Origin: Escherichia coli
Lineage (GTDB): Bacteria > Pseudomonadota > Gammaproteobacteria > Enterobacterales > Enterobacteriaceae
Length of the DNA stretch: 64,000 bases
Direction: 5' to 3' (one strand)
NCBI RefSeq assembly: GCF_003019035.1
Contig: NZ_CP027447.1
Shown here: one piece after another, positions 1 through 41,636 of the stretch
Numbering within the stretch: position 1 is the stretch's first letter
Layout of the letters: the number at the start of each line of letters is the position of its first letter
Position numbers and translations under genes: made by a program
Notes under the pieces: model-generated
What the model was told of the DNA's origin: nothing
Database searches by the model: none
What the model saw: only the letters and a program-made list of their open reading frames with translations

Positions 1-1967
1 CGCCGCAGGCCCTGACGGCGTTAAGCAATGCCGGTTTTGTTAAGCGCAGTCTTAAGGAACTGGAAAATGGCAACGTCCCGGAAATCAGCCATGAGAACGG
101 CGCTTTAATCGCCACCTTCAGTGACGGTGTCCGTACCCAACTGGCGAGCGGTCAGGCACTGAAAGAGGCCCGGTGCAGTTGCGGGGCCAGCGGCATGTGC
201 CGCCATCGCGTGATGCTGGTGTTAAGTTATCAGCGACTTTGCGCCACCACTCAGCCCACGGAAAAAGAAGAAGAGTGGCAGCCTGCAATCTGGCTGGAAG
301 AACTGGCTACCCTGCCCGATGCCACCCGCAAACGTGCACAGGCGCTGGTCGCTAAAGGCATCACCATTGAGTTATTCTGTGCGCCGGGCGAAATTCCCTC
401 AGCCCGCTTACCGATGAGTGACGTGCGTTTTTATTCCCGCAGCAGCATTCGCTTCGCCCGCTGTGATTGCATTGAAGGAACGCTGTGTGAACATGTCGTA
501 CTGGCGGTACAGGCCTTTGTCCAGGCCAAAACTCAGCAGGCGGAATTTACTCATTTAATCTGGCAGATGCGCAGCGAACACGTCACATCATCTGACGATC
601 CGTTTGCCAGCGAAGAAGGCAACGCGTGTCGTCAATATGTTCAGCAATTAAGCCAGGCATTATGGCTTGGCGGCATCAGCCAGCCGCTTATTCACTACGA
701 GGCCGCTTTCAGCCGCGCGCAGCAAGCGGCAGAGGCCTGCAACTGGCGCTGGGTGAGTGAGTCACTACGACAGCTACGGGCAAGCGTTGATGCCTTCCAC
801 GCCCGCGCCAGTCACTATCATGCCGGAGAATGCTTACGTCAGCTTGCGGTATTAAACAGTCGATTAAATTGCGCACAAGAGATGGCGCGCCGCGACAGTA
901 TCAGTGAAGTTCCTCCCATGCCGTGGCGAACGGTGGTTGGCGCAGGCATTGCTGGCGAAGCAAAGCTTGATCATTTGCGGCTGGTGTCGCTAGGTATGCG
1001 TTGCTGGCAGGATATTGAGCAGTATGGTTTACGCATCTGGTTTACCGATCCCGACACCGGCAGTATTTTGCACCTTTCGCGCAGTTGGCCGCGAAGTGAA
1101 CAGGAAAACTCACCGGCAGCGACGCGTCGGCTGTTGAGTTTTCAGGCAGGCGCGCTGGCGGGTGGACAAATTGTTTCACAGGCAGCGCGTCGCAGTGCCG
1201 AAGGCGAACTGCTATTCGCGACCCGCAACCGCTTAAGTAGCGTTGTGCCGCTGTCGCCAGACGCCTGGAAAATGCTGAGTGCGCCGCTGCGCCAGCCAGG
1301 CATTGTGGCTTTACGTGAATATTTACGCCAGCGTCCCCCCGCCTGCATACGACCACTCAACCAGGTCGATAACTTATTTATTCTGCCAGTCGCTGAGTGT
1401 ATTTCACTCGGTTGGGATAGCAGCCGCCAGACACTGGATGCGCAGGTAATCAGCGGCGAAGGTGAAGATAACGTGCTGACATTATCCCTACCAGCCTCTG
1501 CCTGTTCGCCCTTTGCTGTTGAACGCATGGCGGCGCTTTTGCAACAAACAGACGACCCCGTGAGTCTGGTTTCTGGCTTTGTCAGCTTTGTAGAGGGGCA
1601 ATTGACACTGGAACCACGGGTGATGATGACAAAAACCCGCGCCTGGGCGCTGGACGCAGAAACTGCGCCTGTAGCACCGCTACCTTCTGCCAGCGTTTTG
1701 CCTGTGCCGTCTACCGCTCATCAGTTGCTGATGCGCTGCCAGGCGTTACTTATTCAACTGCTCCATAACGGCTGGCGCTATCAGGAACAGAGTGCTATTG
1801 GTCAGGCAGAGTTGCTGGCGAATGACCTCACCGCGGTGGGTTTTTATCGGCTGGCACATGTGTTGGGACAATTTCGTAATACAGAAAGCGAGGCACGGGT
1901 AGAAGCAATGAATAACGGTGTTTTGCTTTGCGAACAATTATTCCCCATGCTTCAGCAACAAGGATGA
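1..1967 (+). CDS. yehQ: SWIM zinc-finger domain protein YehQ, 5'-truncated by window edge (frame open from nt 3)
   Basis: Frame open from window start to stop at 1967; two CxC..CxH SWIM-like motifs (CSCGASGMCRH, CDCIEGTLCEH); position immediately upstream of yehR matches E. coli synteny. Confidence 0.75.
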   Translation, partial: PQALTALSNAGFVKRSLKELENGNVPEISHENGALIATFSDGVRTQLASGQALKEARCSCGASGMCRHRVMLVLSYQRLCATTQPTEKEEEWQPAIWLEELATLPDATRKRAQALVAKGITIELFCAPGEIPSARLPMSDVRFYSRSSIRFARCDCIEGTLCEHVVLAVQAFVQAKTQQAEFTHLIWQMRSEHVTSSDDPFASEEGNACRQYVQQLSQALWLGGISQPLIHYEAAFSRAQQAAEACNWRWVSESLRQLRASVDAFHARASHYHAGECLRQLAVLNSRLNCAQEMARRDSISEVPPMPWRTVVGAGIAGEAKLDHLRLVSLGMRCWQDIEQYGLRIWFTDPDTGSILHLSRSWPRSEQENSPAATRRLLSFQAGALAGGQIVSQAARRSAEGELLFATRNRLSSVVPLSPDAWKMLSAPLRQPGIVALREYLRQRPPACIRPLNQVDNLFILPVAECISLGWDSSRQTLDAQVISGEGEDNVLTLSLPASACSPFAVERMAALLQQTDDPVSLVSGFVSFVEGQLTLEPRVMMTKTRAWALDAETAPVAPLPSASVLPVPSTAHQLLMRCQALLIQLLHNGWRYQEQSAIGQAELLANDLTAVGFYRLAHVLGQFRNTESEARVEAMNNGVLLCEQLFPMLQQQG

Positions 1968-2091
1968 AATAGTGCTTTTTATTAAGAGTTCTACTCCTGT
2001 TCCGGACTGCTCACGCCACAGTATTAGGCATATCCTATATAGCCCCTGGTGAGAGTCACCAGTTCCTTGATTAAATAAAATGGAGTTTTAC

Positions 2092-2553
2092 ATGAAGGCT
2101 TTCAATAAGCTGTTTTCCCTTGTTGTTGCATCTGTTCTGGTTTTCTCTCTTGCTGGCTGCGGTGACAAAGAAGAATCAAAGAAATTCAGCGCCAATCTGA
2201 ACGGCACTGAAATTGCCATTACCTATGTCTACAAAGGTGACAAGGTGCTTAAGCAATCTTCTGAAACCAAAATTCAATTTGCCTCCATTGGTGCAACCAC
2301 CAAAGAAGATGCCGCCAGGACACTTGAGCCGTTAAGCGCCAAATACAAAAACATCGCGGGTGTTGAAGAAAAATTAACCTATACCGATACCTACGCGCAG
2401 GAAAACGTGACTATTGATATGGAAAAAGTGGATTTTAAAGCCCTGCAGGGTATTTCAGGAATCAACGTTTCTGCTGAAGATGCCAAAAAAGGTATCACTA
2501 TGGCGCAAATGGAACTGGTGATGAAAGCCGCTGGTTTTAAAGAAGTGAAATAA
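2092..2553 (+). CDS. yehR: Lipoprotein YehR (DUF1307), 153 aa
   Basis: ORF 2080..2553; start at internal ATG gives MKAFNKLF..LAGC lipobox signal peptide; synteny. Confidence 0.85.
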   Translation: MKAFNKLFSLVVASVLVFSLAGCGDKEESKKFSANLNGTEIAITYVYKGDKVLKQSSETKIQFASIGATTKEDAARTLEPLSAKYKNIAGVEEKLTYTDTYAQENVTIDMEKVDFKALQGISGINVSAEDAKKGITMAQMELVMKAAGFKEVK

Positions 2554-2593
2554 TCTGTCGGCGGCCATGTTTCGCATGGCCGCCATACCCGTC

Positions 2594-3064
2594 TTAGCTT
2601 TTCTTCACATGCTGGCGCGCTGCCAGTCCACGCAGAAAATAACGTAAAAATTGATCGCCGCATTCGCGGAAGTTTTTATGATCCGGTGCACGCATCATCG
2701 CCGTAATTTCCGGCATCGAAACGCGGAACTGCTGTTCGGTGAGGATCGCCAGAATGTCATCGGTTTTAAGCGAAAACGCGATGCGTAATTTTTTCAGCAC
2801 GATGTTGTTATTAATGCGACGTTCCGGCTCCAGTGCCGGAGCAGACTCATCCTTGCCGCGTTTTTCATAAATCAGGCCATTGAGGAATGAAGACAAAACA
2901 ATGTCCGGACAACGCTGAAAACCCTCTTCGTCTTCTTTACGTAGCCAGACGGCGATCTGTTCCGCGGTGGCTTCGACATTACCCAGCGCCAGAATACGCA
3001 CCAGGTCATTATTATTGGCTTTCAAAATGTAGCGCACGCTGCGCAGAATATCGTTACTTAGCAT
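2594..3064 (-). CDS. yehS: DUF1456 protein YehS, 156 aa
   Basis: ORF 2594..3121 trimmed to internal ATG (MLSNDILRSV...); synteny. Confidence 0.8.
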   Translation of the reverse strand: MLSNDILRSVRYILKANNNDLVRILALGNVEATAEQIAVWLRKEDEEGFQRCPDIVLSSFLNGLIYEKRGKDESAPALEPERRINNNIVLKKLRIAFSLKTDDILAILTEQQFRVSMPEITAMMRAPDHKNFRECGDQFLRYFLRGLAARQHVKKS

Positions 3065-3110
3065 GAGGCCTTCAGGTGTTGATGAGGCAAAAAGCCATTT
3101 TAGCAGTCTT

Positions 3111-3830
3111 TTACAGGCCAATCGCCTCTTTTAAGCTTTTCAGATAACGGCGGCTGACCGGCACGGTTAAGCCATTACGCAAAATCAACTCGGCCTGACC
3201 GTTATCTTCCAGACGAATCTCCTGTAAATGCGCGAGGTTAACCAGATACTGACGATGGCAGCGCAGTAGTGGTGTACGACTCTCCAGGGTACGTAATGTC
3301 AGTTCGGTAAAGCCCTCTTTCCCTTCGTGACTGGTAACGTAGACACCGCTCATCCGACTGCTGACAAATGCCACATCTTTCATTTGCAGCAAATAAATCC
3401 GACTATGCCCCGTACAAGGGATAAATTTCAGCGCCTGTTGATTTTCCGGTAACAACGAAACATCCTGCTTGCTGCGCTCCAGACGCAATCGCGCCAGCGT
3501 TTTCTCCAGTCGCGCTTCATCAATTGGCTTCAGCAGATAATCAAAGGCATGTTCTTCAAAGGCTTTAATGGCGTATTCATCAAACGCGGTGAGAAAAACA
3601 ATATACGGACGATGTTCCGGGTCGAGCATCCCCACCATTTCCAGACCACTGATGCGCGGCATCTGGATATCGAGGAACAGCACATCCGGGCGCAGTTTAT
3701 GCACCGCGCCGATCCCTTCCACGGCGTTTGAACACTCACCAACGATTTCAATATCGCTCTGCTCCTGCAAAAATACGCGCAGGTTCTCCCGTGCTAACGG
3801 TTCATCATCGACAATTAAGACTTTAATCAT
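3111..3830 (-). CDS. btsR: LytTR-family response regulator BtsR (YehT), 239 aa
   Basis: Receiver domain [17 protein letters not shown]-terminal LytTR domain; ATGA overlap with upstream kinase gene. Confidence 0.9.
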
Positions 3831-5512
3831 GCCTCGTCCCTCCATGGTAGTCGTAACGTTATTCGGGTGTAACTATCAGGCTCACAGGCGACGCTTATCC
3901 CATAGTCATCGCCAAACCGTTCACGTAAACGCTTATCCACCAGATTCATCCCCAGCCCACTGGCATTGGTTACCGGTTGATACAAACCGGCATTGTCTTC
4001 GATCTCCAGCATCAAATGTTGCCCCTCACGTCGGGCGCTGATTGCCACTCGCCCTGTATCCAGCAGTTGTGATGTCCCATGTTTAATGGCGTTTTCCACT
4101 ATCGGTTGCAGGGTAAACGCGGGCAATTGCTGCTGGGATAATTCTTGCGGAATAGCAATGTTGACCTGCAACCGCGACTGGAAGCGCGCCTTTTCAATTT
4201 GCAGATAAGCGTTCACATGTTCAATTTCGTCGGCGAGAGTAACAAACTCCGAAGGCCGCTTTAAGTTTTTGCGGAAAAAAGTGGAAAGATACTGCACCAG
4301 CTGGCTGGCCTGTTCGCTGTCGCGGCGGATCACCGCTTTAATGGTGTTAAGCGCATTAAACAAAAAATGGGGATTCACCTGGGCGTGAAGCAGTTTGATC
4401 TCTGACTGGGTGAGCATCGCTTTTTGCCGCTCATATTGCCCGGCGAGGATCTGCGCCGAAAGCAGTTGCGCAATCCCCTCACCCAGCGTGCGATTGATTG
4501 AACTGAATAAACGGTTTTTGGCTTCATACAATTTGATGGTACCCATCACTCGCTGATTTTCACCACGCAACGGAATGACCAGCGTCGACCCCAGTTTGCA
4601 TTGCGGATGCAAAGAGCAACGGTAAGGCACTTCGTTGCCATCAGCGTAGACCACTTCACCGGTTTCAATCGCTTTTAAGGTGTAAGTCGAAGAAATCGGT
4701 TTGCCGGGTAAATGGTGGTCGTCACCAATTCCGGTAAAGGCCAGCAATTTCTCTCGATCGGTAATCGCGACTGCACCAATATCCAGCTCCTGATACAGCA
4801 CCTGTGCCACTTTCATGCTGTTCACTTCGTTAAACCCCTGACGCAAAATGCCTTCCGTCGAGGCCGCCACTTTCAGCGCAGTGGCAGAAAAAGCTGAAGT
4901 GTATTTTTCAAACATCGCGCGTTTATCGAGCAATATACGCATAAACAGTGCCGCGCCGACGGTATTGGTGACCATCATTGGCGCAGCAATATTACTCACC
5001 AGACGCACCGCATCTTCATAAGGTCGGGCGATCGCCAGGATGATCAACATTTGCACCATTTCAGCGACGAACGTAACGGCACCGGCGGTAATGGGGTTAA
5101 AGACTTTATCAGTGCGCCCGCGACGGATCAGGATGCTGTGTACCAGGCCGCCGAGCAATCCTTCAACGATGGTCGAGATCATGCAACTTAGCGCGGTCAT
5201 GCCCCCCATCGAATATCGATGTAACCCGCCGGTCAGACCAACCAGCCCACCGACGACCGGACCGCCGAGTAAGCCGCCCATTACCGCGCCTATCGCACGG
5301 GTATTGGCAATAGAATCGTCAATGTGCAACCCAAACCAGGTGCCCATGATGCAGAAGATGGAAAAGACGATGTAGCAGAGAAATTTATGCGGCAGACGAA
5401 CCGTGACCTGCATTAACGGTATGAATAATGGCGTTTTACTCATTAACCACGCAATGACTAAAAAAACGCACATCTGCTGAAGCAGCAGCAACACCAGATT
5501 AAAATCGTACAT
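3827..5512 (-). CDS. btsS: Sensor histidine kinase BtsS (YehU), LytS family, 561 aa
   Basis: Multi-TM N-terminus, GAF and HisKA_3/HATPase regions; ORF 3827..5527 trimmed to [10 protein letters not shown] start. Confidence 0.9.
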
Positions 5513-34519: not shown

Positions 34520-35389
<870 letters not shown>

Positions 35390-35788
35390 TCACCAGCAAA
35401 GGGTATTTTCCAGCGCCGTACTAAAATCACGGTCATCTGCGTGCGGGGCTGGAGACTTCTGGTTTAAATCTGTCAGTTGCTGGCGCACCTGAAGTCGCCC
35501 TGCCCCTTCGCCGCTGGAAGAATTTTCGTTGAAATTACGCATTTCAGCTTCGAACAATATGGCATCGAGATTTTGCAATTTATTCAGCGCGCGCAGAAGA
35601 GAAATGAGGGTATCAAGATTTAAACTTCCTCCCTTTTCAATCCGCTTGACCGTTGCAATGCCCACCAATGCACGATCGGCTAACTGCTGTTGGGTCAATG
35701 ATAATGAGATCCGCGTTTCTTTAATGCGTGCACATAGAGATAAAATAATTTCGTTGTTATTCATCGTATTATATTTCATCTTACGCAT
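35390..35788 (-). CDS. XRE-family helix-turn-helix transcriptional regulator (accessory island gene); start codon uncertain among three in-frame ATGs (35788, 35779, 35764)
   Basis: HTH_XRE signature LTQQQLADRALVGIATVKRIEKG; stop abuts yeiG stop with no intergenic gap; overlaps the 3' end of the upstream dehydratase gene. Confidence 0.7.
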   Translation of the reverse strand: MRKMKYNTMNNNEIILSLCARIKETRISLSLTQQQLADRALVGIATVKRIEKGGSLNLDTLISLLRALNKLQNLDAILFEAEMRNFNENSSSGEGAGRLQVRQQLTDLNQKSPAPHADDRDFSTALENTLCW

Positions 35789-37133
35789 CCTTTTTTCTTG
35801 GCTGCAATTTGCTCAGACAGCCATGATAAGTTTCACGGTATTTAGCGCTCATATCCTTTCCGGTTTCATACATCGCGGAAATTATCTCATCCAGCGTAAT
35901 GCACGGCTCGCTTATGCGACTCAACGCCATCGTCGTTGCGTTGATAGCTTTCACAGCTGAAATAGCATTTCGTTCAATACAAGGAATTTGTACCTGCCCG
36001 CCAACTGGATCACAGGTCAAACCTAAATGGTGTTCCATTGCAATTTCTGCCGCGCTGAGTACCTGAGTCACTGACCCGCCCATAAGTTCTGCTAATCCTG
36101 CTGCCGCCATTGAACTGGCAACGCCTATTTCTCCCTGACATCCAACTTCAGACCCCAGAATAGAGGCATTTTTTTTGAACAGAATGGCGATGGCACCGGC
36201 GGTCAGAAAAAAGCGAGTAACGGAGTAAGTATCAAGTTCATGAATGAATTTATCATACCAACACAGTACGGCCGGGATAATACCGCTCGCGCCGTTGGTG
36301 GGTGCTGTCACGACGCGTCCACCAGCAGCATTTTCTTCGCTCACCGCAATGGCAAAAGTATTAACCCAATTGATCGCAGTCAGGAAGTCATTAGTAAACC
36401 CCTTTGCCTGCAACGATTTATATAAAGCACAGGCACGACGGTTAACCTGATACGGACCTGGAAGTAATCCTTCTGTATGCATCCCGCGATAGACCGCATC
36501 CTTCATTACTTCCCATTTTTTATTGAAATCGTCATGCAAAAAACCAGATGTCTGGCAGTGCAGTTCGTTTTTCATCATTAATGCCGCGACAGATAATCCG
36601 TTTTGCTGACAAAGTTTTAATAATTCGTTTGCGTTCTGGAATTCAAAAGGATGTGGAGTGACTGATGGAGGAATAATCGCCTCTCCTGCTTTTAGCACTT
36701 GACCGTCGCCGATAGAAAACCAGGTTTCTTCATAAAGTGTAAACCAGTCATCTCTGGCACGAAATGTCATCGCATAAGGGTGCCCCGGATGCGCCTGTGG
36801 ATTAGAAAGAATGGATACACTGACGTTGACACCAGGCATAACTTCCAGCGTCGCCTCAGTTTCTGCACGCCTGATGGCGGACATTTCCATGCGGATATCA
36901 ACACTGTCAGGTAAGTGGCCTTGCAAACCGAGATAAATCGCCACATCAACATTATGGCACTTGCGGCTTAATGACAGTGCACCATAAAGTTCGACATCAA
37001 TTTTCCGCAACAAAGGTAACATTTCTCGCTGTTTCAATTGTGAGACAAAATTATAAGCCGCACGCATTGGCCCGACAGTGCGGGAACTGGATGGACCTAT
37101 AACGATTTTGAATATATCTACGCAGCTTTCCAT
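35781..37133 (-). CDS. Fe-S L-serine dehydratase paralogue (SdaA/SdaB/TdcG family), about 450 aa (accessory island gene)
   Basis: Aligns by eye along its length with E. coli SdaA ([62 protein letters not shown]); start set to ATG at 37133 ([17 protein letters not shown]) rather than the upstream TTG. Confidence 0.85.
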
Positions 37134-37188
37134 TTTTGTAAATAATTCCTTCAACGTTGAAAACTCGTTATTCGTTATATCCTAGCAA

Positions 37189-37260
37189 AGATATCAAAAA
37201 TGGTACTTTTAGTATCTTATTATTTCAAGGTATCAAAAAAAGTACTTTTTTATCTTTTAT
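37189..37260. promoter_or_regulatory. Two direct-repeat copies of an approximately 27-bp palindrome-containing motif (TATCAAAAA..GTACTTTT..TATCTT) in the divergent island promoter; putative operator
   Basis: Copy 1 around 37191-37219, copy 2 around 37230-37258; copy 2 contains the perfect 16-bp palindrome AAAAAAGTACTTTTTT. Confidence 0.4.
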
Positions 37261-37343
37261 TTAACATTCACAACTGTGATTGTCAGATACATCAGCCTCT
37301 ACGAAATCTTATTATAATCATCGCAGATAAAAAGGAGCGGTAA

Positions 37344-38231
37344 ATGACGATTATTTATTTCTTGTCGCCAACAGGCATCGACATCACCCAAAAATGTCTG
37401 AAAGATTATCTGCAACATTTAAAGATTTCCCCCTCGGTGTTTTCGTTAACAACGAATTACAGTAGGCAAATAAATAGAGAGTATCTAAAGCTAGTATTAC
37501 CAAATGATGTTACCAACCCTGCTTTTTATGCTGGTTTACGTCACCGTGCTGATCATCATCATTTTGATTTTTTCCGCAAACCTACGGACTTACCGGCTGA
37601 GGGAATTATTGCCTTTGATATGGATTCCACCTTTGTTGAAGAGGAAGGTGTTGATGAAATAGCCCGTAGACTCGGCATCTCTGAAAAAATCACCGCACTG
37701 ACCCGTGAAGCGATGGAAGGGAAAATCGATTTTGATACCAGTTTTACCCGGCGAATTGCCATGCTTAAAGGAACGCATAAAGATATATTGCATCAAGTTT
37801 GTGAACAGATGACTCTTTCACCAGGTCTTGAAACTATTCTTCCCATACTAAAAGAAAAAGGATTCAAGACGGCAATTATATCTGGAGGTTTGGATATTTT
37901 TACTGAGCGATTGAAGGAAAAATATCAACTTGATTTTGCATTTTCTAACTCTGTGCGCATTAAGGAAGATCTGTTAACTGATACAATTACCTTACCTATT
38001 ATGAATGCAGAAAAGAAAAAGCAAACCCTGATAAATTTAGCGACAGAGTTAGCTATCTGCCGTGAAAACATCATTGCCTGCGGAGATGGCGCTAATGATA
38101 TTCCTATGCTTCTGCATGCCGGGAATGGCGTGGCATGGAAAGCAAAACCTAAAACCCGGGAAAAAGTTGCTAACCAGATTAATTTTAATGGTTTCGAGTC
38201 GCTTCTCTTTTTTATAGAAGAAAAATTATAG
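37344..38231 (+). CDS. HAD-superfamily phosphoserine-phosphatase-like protein (SerB paralogue), 295 aa (accessory island gene)
   Basis: HAD motifs DMDSTF (I), SGG (II), GDGANDIPML (III); collinear with SerB catalytic domain; AAGGAG Shine-Dalgarno 8 nt upstream of ATG. Confidence 0.8.
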   Translation: MTIIYFLSPTGIDITQKCLKDYLQHLKISPSVFSLTTNYSRQINREYLKLVLPNDVTNPAFYAGLRHRADHHHFDFFRKPTDLPAEGIIAFDMDSTFVEEEGVDEIARRLGISEKITALTREAMEGKIDFDTSFTRRIAMLKGTHKDILHQVCEQMTLSPGLETILPILKEKGFKTAIISGGLDIFTERLKEKYQLDFAFSNSVRIKEDLLTDTITLPIMNAEKKKQTLINLATELAICRENIIACGDGANDIPMLLHAGNGVAWKAKPKTREKVANQINFNGFESLLFFIEEKL

Positions 38232-38263: not shown

Positions 38264-39586
38264 ATGAGCTTGAAAAAATTTATTTTCAGCCAGGCCGACC
38301 AACCGGTGGTCAAACGGCAAGAAGAAGTTGATCATACTTATAAAAAATTTCGCATTGAAATCATCACCTCTGTATTTATCTCTTATGCCGTATTTTATTT
38401 AACCCGCAAGAATTTCTCTGCGGCCATGCCGGCGATGTTAACGGATACGTCATTAACTGCACAAGATTTCGCTATCATGTCGTCGGTCTTTTACATTCTT
38501 TATGGCTCCATGAAGTTTGTAGGTGGCATGTTAGTTGATAAAATTAATCCACGCGCGATGACCGGCCCCGTACTTATTGGCGTCGGTATTGTTAATATTC
38601 TTTTCGGTTTTTCAGACAGCGTTGCTGCGTTCTATATCCTGTACAGCCTTAATGCTATTCTTCAGGGTACCAGTTTTCCGCCGATGGCAAAAATTATGGC
38701 CTCGTGGTTCTCTAAAAATGAACGCGGGCGCTGGTGGGCAGTTGTTGAAGCGGCGCATAATATTGGCGGTAGTCTTGCGCCTCTCCTGACAAGCTTTGCT
38801 ATTGCTTTTAGTGGCAGCTGGAAGATGGGCTTTTATGTTCCGGGTGTAATCTCACTGATTATGGGGATTGTTGCCTTGTTTACGATAAAAGATCGTCCCG
38901 GCACGCTCGGTTTGCCTAACGTCGGTAAGTGGCGCAACGACCCGACAGAACTTGCACAAGTTAAAGCAAGTCCGGTTGATCTCAGTTTTTGGCAAATATT
39001 CGTTAAATATATTCTTACCAACCCATTAGTTTGGCTCATTATCCTCGGGGATATGTCGGTCTATATTGCACGCACCATCCTCAATGACTGGCCACAAATT
39101 TATTATTCTCAGGTTCATAACTGGAGCCTGATTAAAGCGAACTCCATTATATCCTGGTTTGAAGCAGGTGGACTTGCTGGGGGATTACTGGCGGGATACT
39201 TGTCCGATTTCATGTTTAAAAGTAACCGCTGGATGACCGGATTAATCTTTGCCATCGCTTTATGTATTTGCATCGTTCTCGTACCGCTGGTGCAGGACGT
39301 CTCCTATACATTAACGGCTATTCTGTTTACAATCATGGGGTTTGCATTGTATGGACCGCATATGTTATTCGCTGTCGGGTGTCTTGATGTTACGCATAAA
39401 GATGCGGCAGGTTCCATTACTGGATTCAGGGGCTTGTTTAGTTATTTAGGCGCGGCAATGGCAGGGCTTCCAGTTATTATGGTGAAAAACAGTTGGGAAT
39501 GGTCAGGAGTGTATATTTACGCCGTCATTACCATTTTGCTGACAACATTTTCACTGGCCTTACTGGCAAAATTTCATCGGTTATAA
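38264..39586 (+). CDS. MFS transporter of the organophosphate:phosphate antiporter (OPA) family, GlpT/UhpT/PgtP-like, 440 aa (accessory island gene)
   Basis: 12-TM MFS; OPA-family signatures (YLTRKNFSAAMP, WFSKNERGRWW, LYGPHMLFAVG, AAGSITGFRGLFSYLGA) resembling GlpT; Shine-Dalgarno AAGGA upstream. Confidence 0.8.
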   Translation: MSLKKFIFSQADQPVVKRQEEVDHTYKKFRIEIITSVFISYAVFYLTRKNFSAAMPAMLTDTSLTAQDFAIMSSVFYILYGSMKFVGGMLVDKINPRAMTGPVLIGVGIVNILFGFSDSVAAFYILYSLNAILQGTSFPPMAKIMASWFSKNERGRWWAVVEAAHNIGGSLAPLLTSFAIAFSGSWKMGFYVPGVISLIMGIVALFTIKDRPGTLGLPNVGKWRNDPTELAQVKASPVDLSFWQIFVKYILTNPLVWLIILGDMSVYIARTILNDWPQIYYSQVHNWSLIKANSIISWFEAGGLAGGLLAGYLSDFMFKSNRWMTGLIFAIALCICIVLVPLVQDVSYTLTAILFTIMGFALYGPHMLFAVGCLDVTHKDAAGSITGFRGLFSYLGAAMAGLPVIMVKNSWEWSGVYIYAVITILLTTFSLALLAKFHRL

Positions 39587-39644: not shown

Positions 39645-41636
39645 TCAGAAGCGATAATCCACTGCCATAAAGTAACGACGTCCGTCTTCGTTATAGCTGT
39701 AGTCGTCACGACTGAGATCCTTGTCGCCAAGGTTCAGCACGCCTGCGCGCAGTTTGACGTCTTTAGTTACCTGCCAGGCCGCACCGGTATTCCAGATGGT
39801 ATAACCGCCCGGTGTTTTAGCCGTCGCGCTGTCGGCGCGTTTCTGCCCGGTATAGTGACCAGAAACATAGAATGACCAGTCTTCCAGCGCCAGCGGTTTC
39901 CAGTCCAGCGTACCGTTAGCAGTATGGAACGGCAGATCGGATAGCGGTTTGTTTTCGCCGTTGCTGACATCACGACCATCGTTGTAGGTGTAGTTGAGTG
40001 ACAGTTTCCATTCATCGTTGAACGGAATTTTCAGCTCGGTTTCCACGCCCTGAATACGTGCTTTGTTAACGTTGTAGTAGCTGAATACCGGTATGCGCCG
40101 TCCGTTAGCGCCCGTCTCAAAACCGACAAAGTTTTGGTAGCCCGGTGCAGCATTGACATCAGACGTACGGCTGATGCTGATGCGATCTTTCACATCGTTA
40201 CGGAAAACGGTAACGCTGGACTCCACCCCTTCCAGCCAGCCGTCTTCACCCATGTAGTAAAGCCCCAGCTCCCAACTTTCGCTGGTTTCTGGTTTCAGAT
40301 CCGGGCTACCCACAATCTTACATGCGCCACGGCAGGAATTGCTCGTCCAGTCAGGGCTAAGTTGCAACAGAGAAGGTGCTTTAAATGCCGTCGCCCAGCC
40401 CCCTTTCACCGTTACGGTGTCGGTGGCGTTATAAACCAGGTAGGCACGCGGACTCCAGTGTTCACCGTAGGTTTCGTGATCGTCCATACGCACGCCGGTC
40501 GTCAGCGCCAGCGGCTCGAAGATCCGCCATTCATCTTCCACAAACAGCGCGTACTGGCTGGCAGACGTTTTGGAGCTGGTTCCCCCGGTCAGGTTCACCG
40601 CATCGCTAAGTTTGTCGTGACGCCATTCACCGCCAACCGTGAGAAACTGATTAATCGCCGTCAGCGGCAACGTGTATTTGCCGTCGACCGTATTGCTTTC
40701 GGAAGTTATCGGGCTGCTGTTGCCAGGGTTTTTGTTCTCGACTTTCTCACCGTAGTATTTCAGTTCGCTGGTGCCGTAATCCCAACGCCCATTATGGCTG
40801 ACGGAGTAGTTCTGGCGTTCCAGGCGGTTTTTGTCCAGCGAGTCGGAATCACGATCCTGACGGTCGAAACCGTATCCGGCAGTAAAATCGTGATTTTGAT
40901 TCGGTGTCCAGGCAAATTCGACATTGCCGTCGCGGCTGGAGAATCCTTCAATACGCGGCGTTTCTCCGGTATCGGTGGTCGTTGAGTTTTGCGGGTCATC
41001 CTTTTCACGTTTTGCCAGGCTGCCGTAAGCTTTCATTCCCAGCACACCATCAATTAATGGTCCACTGGTAAAGAACTGACCGTTATAGGTATCACCGCGA
41101 TCGCGATGTTCCTGAATGGTGGTATCGACGGTAACGGTACCCGACCATTTCTGACCGATTTTTTTGGTGATGATATTCACTACACCGCCGAGTGCATCGG
41201 AACCGTACAGCGACGACATCGGGCCACGGACCACTTCAATACGTTCGATGGAATCGACCGGGATCCAGTTCAGATCGAAATCATTGTGGCGGAAGACGGC
41301 ATTGCGGGAGTTAACGCGTTTACCGTCGACAAGAATCAGGGTGTAGCTGCTGTCCAGACCACGAATACTAACGCCCTTACGGTTATCCCCTTCGTTCGTC
41401 AGTTGTACGCCAGGCACTTCTTTGAGCACATCCTTCAGATTCTGTACCGGTTTTCGCTGCAGGTCTTCCTGGGTAATGACGCTGATACTGGCGGGTGCAT
41501 CTTTAAGGTTTTGCTCAACGGAAGATGCAGTGACAACCATCGTTTCGCCATCATCATCGACCGCTAACACAGGCCATGCACAAGAAATAGCGGACAAACA
41601 CAGCCCGACCCGTACGAAAGGGTTCAACCTAAACAT
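39645..41636 (-). CDS. cirA: TonB-dependent catecholate siderophore / colicin I receptor CirA, 663 aa
   Basis: Signal peptide [25 protein letters not shown], TonB box, C-terminal aromatic residue; length. Confidence 0.93.

Follow-up and report, generated by a model that had tools for sequence, protein, structure and literature searches.

The window analyzed here, a stretch of 64,000 nucleotides from the Escherichia coli contig NZ_CP027447.1, contains a 4.25-kb island between yeiG (34553-35389) and cirA (39645-41636). The island carries the gene of a type-2 [4Fe-4S] L-serine dehydratase homologue and three more genes, encoding an XRE-family regulator, a SerB-type phosphoserine phosphatase paralogue, and a transporter of the major facilitator superfamily (MFS) (Table 1). 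Its GC content is 0.38-0.47, compared with 0.50-0.55 in the flanks. The spacer between yeiG and cirA measures 31 bp in K-12 (L014 3747-3779) and is filled by the island here, with the stop codon of the regulator gene directly abutting that of yeiG (35389-35392). The dehydratase contains an arginine, Arg18, at the position of His19 in the GPSSSHT motif of the Legionella pneumophila enzyme, and the lineage defined by this arginine is a distinct, uncharacterised sub-lineage of the type-2 enzymes.

Table 1 Features of the yeiG-cirA island. Positions refer to the window.
Feature	Position	Strand	Remarks
Type-2 [4Fe-4S] L-serine dehydratase homologue, Arg lineage	35781..37133	-	450 aa, beta and alpha domains in one chain
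C-terminal tail of the dehydratase	35781..35828	-	Basic, without the canonical GGLA...C terminal cysteine (sequence comparison)
Segment with Cys332, Cys374, and Cys385 (Fe-S ligands)	35979..36140	-	By alignment to 4RQO
Tyr120 codon	36774..36776	-	Replaces Asn of the HxN motif (Legionella His124/Asn126); reads HPY
His60 codon	36954..36956	-	Equivalent of the Legionella catalytic base His61, retained
Arg57 codon, CGC	36963..36965	-	Replaces Gly (Gly in 52/52 background enzymes, Arg in 12/12 clade members)
Arg18 codon, CGC (+ strand gcg)	37080..37082	-	Replaces Legionella His19 of the GPSSSHT motif
XRE-family helix-turn-helix regulator	35390..35788	-	132 aa; 8-nt overlap of its start with the dehydratase stop
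Divergent promoter region	37134..37343	.	Two operator-like repeats, 37188-37218 and 37227-37257
SerB-type phosphoserine phosphatase paralogue (HAD-IB)	37344..38231	+	295 aa; divergently transcribed
MFS transporter, organophosphate:phosphate antiporter type (UhpC/GlpT/PgtP-like)	38264..39586	+	440 aa

Family membership and catalytic core of the dehydratase

The open reading frame of the dehydratase starts with ATG, and the N-terminus of the protein reads MESC. Translation from a TTG upstream, at 37154, would lengthen the protein by seven residues; the ATG was taken as the real start because every homologue begins with MESC. Some E. coli submissions contain a 457-aa form that starts at this TTG, or the name 'L-serine dehydratase TdcG', and both look like annotation errors.

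The protein matched the Pfam domains SDH_beta (PF03315, E=1.2e-39) and SDH_alpha (PF03313, E=7.1e-83) and scored 543.8 bits with the TIGR00720 model (sda_mono, single-chain L-serine ammonia-lyase), well above the cut-off of 345.1. It also matched the Legionella structure 4RQO (E=1.4e-108), whose chain numbers minus 18 give the native Legionella numbering used below. The AlphaFold2 model of the dehydratase, with a predicted local distance difference test (pLDDT) score of 93.4, superimposed on 4RQO with a template modeling (TM) score of 0.86 and 44% identity over the structural alignment. Both proteins have a single-chain beta-alpha architecture, three cysteine ligands, His61 (His60 here), the GPSSS loop, and the TAPTNG motif; however, the island enzyme differs from the Legionella enzyme by the exchange of His19 for Arg, of HxN for HPY, and of Gly58 for Arg, and by the lack of a tail of the Cys458 type. 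Its domains, curated score, ligands, and catalytic base place it among the type-2 Fe-S L-serine dehydratases, although three features typical of the characterised members, namely His19, the Asn of the HxN motif, and the C-terminal Cys, were absent.

The E. coli enzymes SdaA, SdaB, and TdcG (EC 4.3.1.17) resemble the island enzyme in their domains, in the match to TIGR00720, and in the product name assigned by PGAP. In contrast to them, the island enzyme belongs to a separate sister lineage, and its scores remained far below the cut-offs of the equivalog models NF011614 (SdaA; 511.5 against 873) and NF011598 (SdaB/TdcG; 467.1 against 942). Its context also differs, being an island with a phosphatase, a putative antiporter, and an XRE regulator instead of sdaC-sdaB or the tdc operon. 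On these sequence comparisons, the dehydratase is not an orthologue of SdaA or of SdaB/TdcG.

The three Fe-S ligand cysteines that a sequence-only reading of this DNA had reported were found as Cys332, Cys374, and Cys385, in the motifs EVGC332QGE, LGLTC374DP, and QIPC385IERN, and aligned with Legionella Cys343, Cys385, and Cys396. Cys332 and Cys374 were invariant and Cys385 nearly so (alignment A2). His60 aligned with Legionella His61, which acts as the catalytic base of that enzyme; the H61A variant is inactive (PMC12647591). Ser15/Ser17 and Thr279, which hold the substrate carboxylate, were retained as well. All orthologue copies examined, from E. coli, E. whittamii, Salmonella, C. koseri, and another enterobacterium, were intact, with a ratio of nonsynonymous to synonymous substitution rates (dN/dS) of 0.07-0.10 where dS was estimable; the dehydratase is under purifying selection across its whole length. 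The retention of the cysteine ligands, the catalytic-base histidine, and the carboxylate-binding serine and threonine residues, together with these ratios, lends indirect support to the earlier suggestion that the enzyme is probably active.

Arg18 and the changes that accompany it

The same reading had noted an arginine in place of the histidine of the N-terminal motif. The open reading frame indeed reads Arg18, and its codon, CGC, is a single transition away from the histidine codon CAC. Among the best 120 database matches, Arg was found in 15 proteins at 67-98% identity, from E. coli, Citrobacter spp., Scandinavium, Salmonella enterica, and metagenomic sequences; below this group, identity fell to 54%, and the remaining 105 matches, canonical gamma-proteobacterial enzymes, all contained His. 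One of these His-carrying matches, P0062, is named only L-serine ammonia-lyase at its source, and we take it to be E. coli TdcG from its N-terminus. E. whittamii was also among the Arg carriers, and the Arg-type gene is rare in E. coli. In the clade as a whole, Arg was present in 16/16 members from four genera, and another 22 full-length sequences of the cluster, from E. coli and Salmonella, contained it without exception.

Two wider comparisons gave a consistent picture. When 1.84 billion representatives of 50%-identity clusters were searched, 125 of the sequences recovered covered the N-terminus, and position 19 was occupied by His in 118, Arg in four, Gln in two, and Phe in one; the four Arg sequences comprised the query and its orthologue from Salmonella along with P0121 and P0122, the nearest two outliers. 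A curated alignment set 12 clade members against a background of 52 diverse type-2 enzymes (38-54% identity); the position was His in 52/52 background enzymes and Arg in 12/12 clade members. His/Arg variation, which if widespread would have made the substitution unremarkable, is thus not common at this position. Sequencing error, chance, and a pseudogene were rejected as explanations of Arg18, which is kept across genera in a gene with the low dN/dS given above.

In a neighbour-joining tree, the Arg clade, P0121, P0122, and a variant with Gln at this position, P0127, formed one lineage with a long branch, sister to SdaA/SdaB/TdcG. The Arg lineage shares only 50-54% identity with these three enzymes. 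The idea of a divergent subfamily, raised from the sequence alone, therefore holds: the lineage is monophyletic, distant from the E. coli enzymes, and under the NCBIfam equivalog cut-offs.

Arg18 is accompanied by other changes at strongly conserved positions. Six substitutions of the clade, S52A, T56S, G57R, N120Y, G143A/D, and A441G/S, affect residues invariant in the 52/52 background enzymes, and G59C (Gly in 51/52 of the background), S326L, A328S, G316A, and T62V were found in addition. The canonical motif LTGKGHxTD reads LSRKCHNVD in the clade, and its histidine (His60) is kept. In the HxN motif, which faces the cluster in the Legionella enzyme, Asn was found in 52/52 background enzymes, whereas Tyr was found in 12/12 clade members. 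As judged from the alignment, the active-site loops of the beta domain are remodelled by H18R, S52A, T56S, G57R, G59C, and N120Y. Only Arg18 is common to the whole lineage, since P0121 and P0122 lack G57R, G59C, and T62V. In the Legionella enzyme, His19 and His61 are both said to flank the substrate position, the H19A variant reportedly keeps substantial activity, which would make this histidine dispensable for catalysis, and His124/Asn126 have reportedly been proposed as a binding site for an activating serine or as a trap for the cysteine tail.

The C-terminus has changed too, the canonical ...GGLAxxVxxC being replaced by a basic tail. We counted tails in 197 full-length sequences, with His (180), Arg (16), or Phe (1) at position 19. 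Among the His-type sequences, the terminal Cys was present in 162 and absent in 18. It was absent in 15/16 Arg sequences, the exception being C. koseri, which ends in ...RKRC, and the canonical GGLA...C tail was missing from all 16. The single Phe sequence, P0266, had a terminal Cys. A strict co-variation of His19 and the Cys tail was rejected as a rule, given the 18/180 His-type enzymes that also lack the terminal Cys. In canonical enzymes, the terminal cysteine blocks the active site as fourth ligand of the iron and works as a built-in competitive inhibitor; in the Legionella enzyme this residue is Cys458, which occupies the place of the substrate, and cysteine inhibits competitively (PMC12647591). 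The lineage thus appears to keep the catalytic core and to alter elements tied to tail-in-mouth and activation behaviour. The sequence-only reading was silent on G57R, N120Y, the lost C-terminal Cys, and the four-gene cassette.

Neighbouring genes and distribution of the cassette

The genes for the XRE regulator and the dehydratase are probably co-transcribed because they overlap by 8 nt. The divergent promoter region contains two imperfectly palindromic repeats of about 31 nt (AAGrTATCAAAAA..GTACTTTT..TATCTT). Their cores, TTTTTrATACC and GTAyCAyTTTTrATAT, were kept across five taxa, with E. whittamii, Salmonella, C. koseri, and another enterobacterium included in the comparison, while the surrounding DNA has diverged. 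The repeats are probably operators of the XRE regulator, as suggested by this conservation. A scan of the sequence for promoter and terminator consensus motifs gave fewer matches than were obtained in shuffled controls.

The phosphatase scored above the cut-off of the SerB equivalog TIGR00338 (208.5 against 144.15). Its residues Asp92, Asp94, Glu101, Met124, Phe130, and Arg137 correspond to Asp11, Asp13, Glu20, Met43, Phe49, and Arg56 of the M. jannaschii phosphoserine phosphatase 1F5S, in which we take Glu20, Met43, Phe49, and Arg56 to be the phosphoserine-recognition residues. It thus shares with SerB and the M. jannaschii enzyme the fold of class IB of the haloacid dehalogenase (HAD) family, the DxD nucleophile motif, and the recognition residues. 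It differs from SerB in its N-terminal domain of 85 aa, in its score with NF008350 (203 against a cut-off of 413), and in its location in a catabolic-looking cassette and not in a serine biosynthesis context. Over its full length it matched the PDB entry 4EZE (E=8.6e-118), presumably a Salmonella Typhi structural-genomics target. This entry was deposited only as 'haloacid dehalogenase-like hydrolase', and a literature search found neither a publication nor a substrate assignment for it.

The transporter matched GlpT (1PW4, E=4.2e-68), and the basic residues of the phosphate site, presumably GlpT Arg45, Lys80, His165, and Arg269, were conserved. It resembles GlpT, UhpT, UhpC, and PgtP in its MFS fold and in these basic residues. 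Its best subfamily match was UhpC; however, unlike these antiporters it scored below every equivalog or subfamily cut-off (UhpC, PgtP, GlpT, and UhpT), and a specificity for phosphoserine had no bacterial example in the literature searched.

The island was found in 89/5426 complete E. coli genomes (~1.6%), always chromosomal and single-copy, and is 100% identical to that of strain SCU-301. The four-gene cassette also occurs at yeiG-cirA in Salmonella, C. koseri, E. whittamii, and another enterobacterium. Judging by cluster names, the clade extends over the subspecies of S. enterica, and S. bongori has the neighbouring regulator. A scan of genome contigs with the phosphatase as query recovered one locus (E. 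whittamii), exact peptide patterns being too strict. Since Salmonella, Citrobacter, and E. whittamii carry the island at this very site, it may either be ancestral and have been lost by the majority of E. coli or have re-entered through homology of the flanks. Between E. coli and the Salmonella locus L001, amino acid identity was 92% for the MFS transporter, 74% for the XRE regulator, 72% for the dehydratase, and 63% for the phosphatase, with 87-96% for the flanking yeiG, cirA, and folE. The transporter is therefore as constrained as the core genes between these two species, and the dehydratase and the phosphatase are much less so.

The XRE regulator is the constant partner of the dehydratase: a homologous regulator was found beside the dehydratase at loci L001, L003, L005, L007, L009, L010, and L013. 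At L007 (positions 1168-5129; Salmonella enterica GCA_040089445.1), a rearranged second cassette contains a dehydratase, an XRE regulator, an MFS transporter, and a HAD protein at 50-71% identity. Its dehydratase, P0121, is 50% identical to that of the window and comes from a rare second locus of the Salmonella isolate with a different gene order. Genes for phage lysis, a phage tail, and an autotransporter adjoin this cassette, and the module is therefore mobile. A linkage that outlasts such divergence and rearrangement argues for functional coupling.

In the high-GC organism (GC 0.67) that carries P0122, the dehydratase and an XRE homologue adjoin an NAD-glutamate dehydrogenase. For P0127, the Gln variant, the preceding genes encode a canonical serine dehydratase and a serine-type permease, and an XRE homologue is encoded upstream (L010 5527-8359). 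This protein reads GPSGPQT, lacks a terminal Cys, and stands in tandem directly after these two genes; it apparently provides an independent case of a paralogue with neither the His nor the tail. The contexts of the XRE-paired members of the lineage point to amino acid catabolism, specifically that of serine.

Literature searches on the Salmonella locus tags, on 4EZE and the EFI target, and on phosphoserine transport and utilisation found no functional study of the locus. It is mentioned in an entry of a transposon-sequencing list and for a silent single-nucleotide polymorphism. The sole functional hint is that transposon mutants of STM14_2709 grow better under iron restriction. Given the adjacency of its tag to STM14_2708/STM2195, STM14_2709 probably encodes the dehydratase orthologue of Salmonella, and the mutant phenotype would then be compatible with an expressed Fe-S protein.

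Proposed function of the cassette and its alternatives

From the sequence features, conservation, purifying selection, and gene linkage described above, we infer the activities, the transported substrate, and the regulatory consequences proposed here. With moderate confidence, we consider the protein to be a functional L-serine dehydratase with altered regulation that serves a cassette for phosphoserine uptake and catabolism. The MFS antiporter would import O-phospho-L-serine, with phosphate leaving in exchange, and the SerB paralogue would hydrolyse it to L-serine and phosphate. The Arg-lineage dehydratase would then convert L-serine to pyruvate and ammonium, clearing the potentially toxic serine, and the XRE protein would control both divergent units. 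A dedicated dehydratase would be sensible in such a pathway because the sudden release of serine inside the cell is harmful. The chemistry of the enzyme would probably be unchanged, with no auto-inhibition by the tail and with an altered HxN site, and an enzyme free of the auto-inhibitory Cys tail could clear serine efficiently. Arg18 itself would be the signature of a lineage whose enzyme probably differs in regulation.

Several points weigh against this proposal. The His-type enzymes that lack the terminal Cys indicate that tail loss alone needs no loss of His. The AlphaFold2 models did not separate the tails, with pLDDT values of 68/62 in the dehydratase and 76/59 in canonical TdcG, and where residue 19 lies with respect to the cluster in 4RQO is our assumption. 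The two new arginines and the tyrosine in the active-site loops exceed an obvious regulatory need, and the loop changes would also fit an anionic or bulkier substrate. The transporter is closest to UhpC, a hexose-phosphate sensor/transporter, and matches no equivalog, so that its substrate is a guess. Finally, E. coli and Salmonella have their own canonical L-serine dehydratases, and a fourth one therefore needs the argument of co-regulation.

These loop changes are the basis of an alternative, which we consider unlikely, that the enzyme is neofunctionalised and that its remodelled pocket (Arg18, Arg57, Cys59, Val62, Tyr120, and Leu326) changes substrate specificity. Candidate substrates would be L-threonine or another beta-hydroxy amino acid, D-serine derived from D-phosphoserine, or O-phospho-L-serine, undergoing direct beta-elimination with the arginines binding the anion. 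Eight positions invariant in 52/52 type-2 enzymes were changed and then fixed in the clade, several of them in the loops with the catalytic His and the HxN motif; two of the changes add positive charge, and T62V, S326L, and N120Y remove polar groups. The long branch and the scores under the SdaA and SdaB/TdcG equivalog cut-offs would fit as well. However, neither the catalytic base nor the carboxylate-binding residues have changed, and the outliers P0121 and P0122 lack three of the pocket substitutions, leaving Arg18 alone to span the lineage. Related members adjoin a serine-type permease and a canonical dehydratase, and the adjacent SerB-type phosphatase, with L-serine as its product, would be redundant if phosphoserine were eliminated directly. 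The gene context thus speaks mildly against the altered substrate preference that the sequence-only reading had raised. A specific form of this idea, in which Arg18 and Arg57 form an anion-binding pocket beside the unique iron and an anionic, possibly phosphorylated, beta-substituted amino acid is eliminated, seems to us distinctly improbable.

It is also rather unlikely that the substitution is neutral, with His19 dispensable, Arg fixed by chance in an ancestor, and the protein an ordinary fourth L-serine dehydratase isozyme. The change requires one transition, the H19A variant of the Legionella enzyme reportedly stays substantially active, and the Phe and the two Gln among the cluster representatives illustrate that other residues occur at position 19. 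In contrast, the conservation of His in 118/125 representatives and throughout the diverse set indicates strong constraint, and within the lineage Arg is just as invariant, even at identities as low as 48-51%, at which the greater part of the sequence differs. It also co-occurs with the changes at other invariant sites and with the loss of the Cys tail. An inactive paralogue acting as a sensor or co-regulator with the XRE protein would explain their constant pairing and probable co-transcription and the loss of several family-invariant residues, but it is very improbable, as the cluster ligands, catalytic base, and substrate-carboxylate ligands are kept under purifying selection over the full length and the adjacent phosphatase and transporter are in keeping with a role in catabolism.

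The Fe-S L-serine dehydratases have been treated as one uniform family, and the separate lineage described here is automatically annotated like SdaA/TdcG, although it occurs across Salmonella and Citrobacter and, among the complete genomes of E. coli, in ~1.6%. The single-residue finding is modest, and the hypothesis at the level of the cassette is the more useful product. No description of a nutrient route for phosphoserine was found in the searchable literature. Should the anion-pocket idea be true, it would mean an undescribed catabolic route for organophospho-amino acids and a new antiporter specificity, the route being core to Salmonella and sporadic in E. coli. If the phosphoserine cassette functions as we propose, these bacteria would take up phosphoserine intact and break it down to pyruvate, ammonium, and phosphate. 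A bench test is worthwhile in view of this hypothesis and of the tail-in-mouth elements lost in nature, and the lineage offers a natural experiment on the roles of His19, the HxN motif, and the Cys tail.

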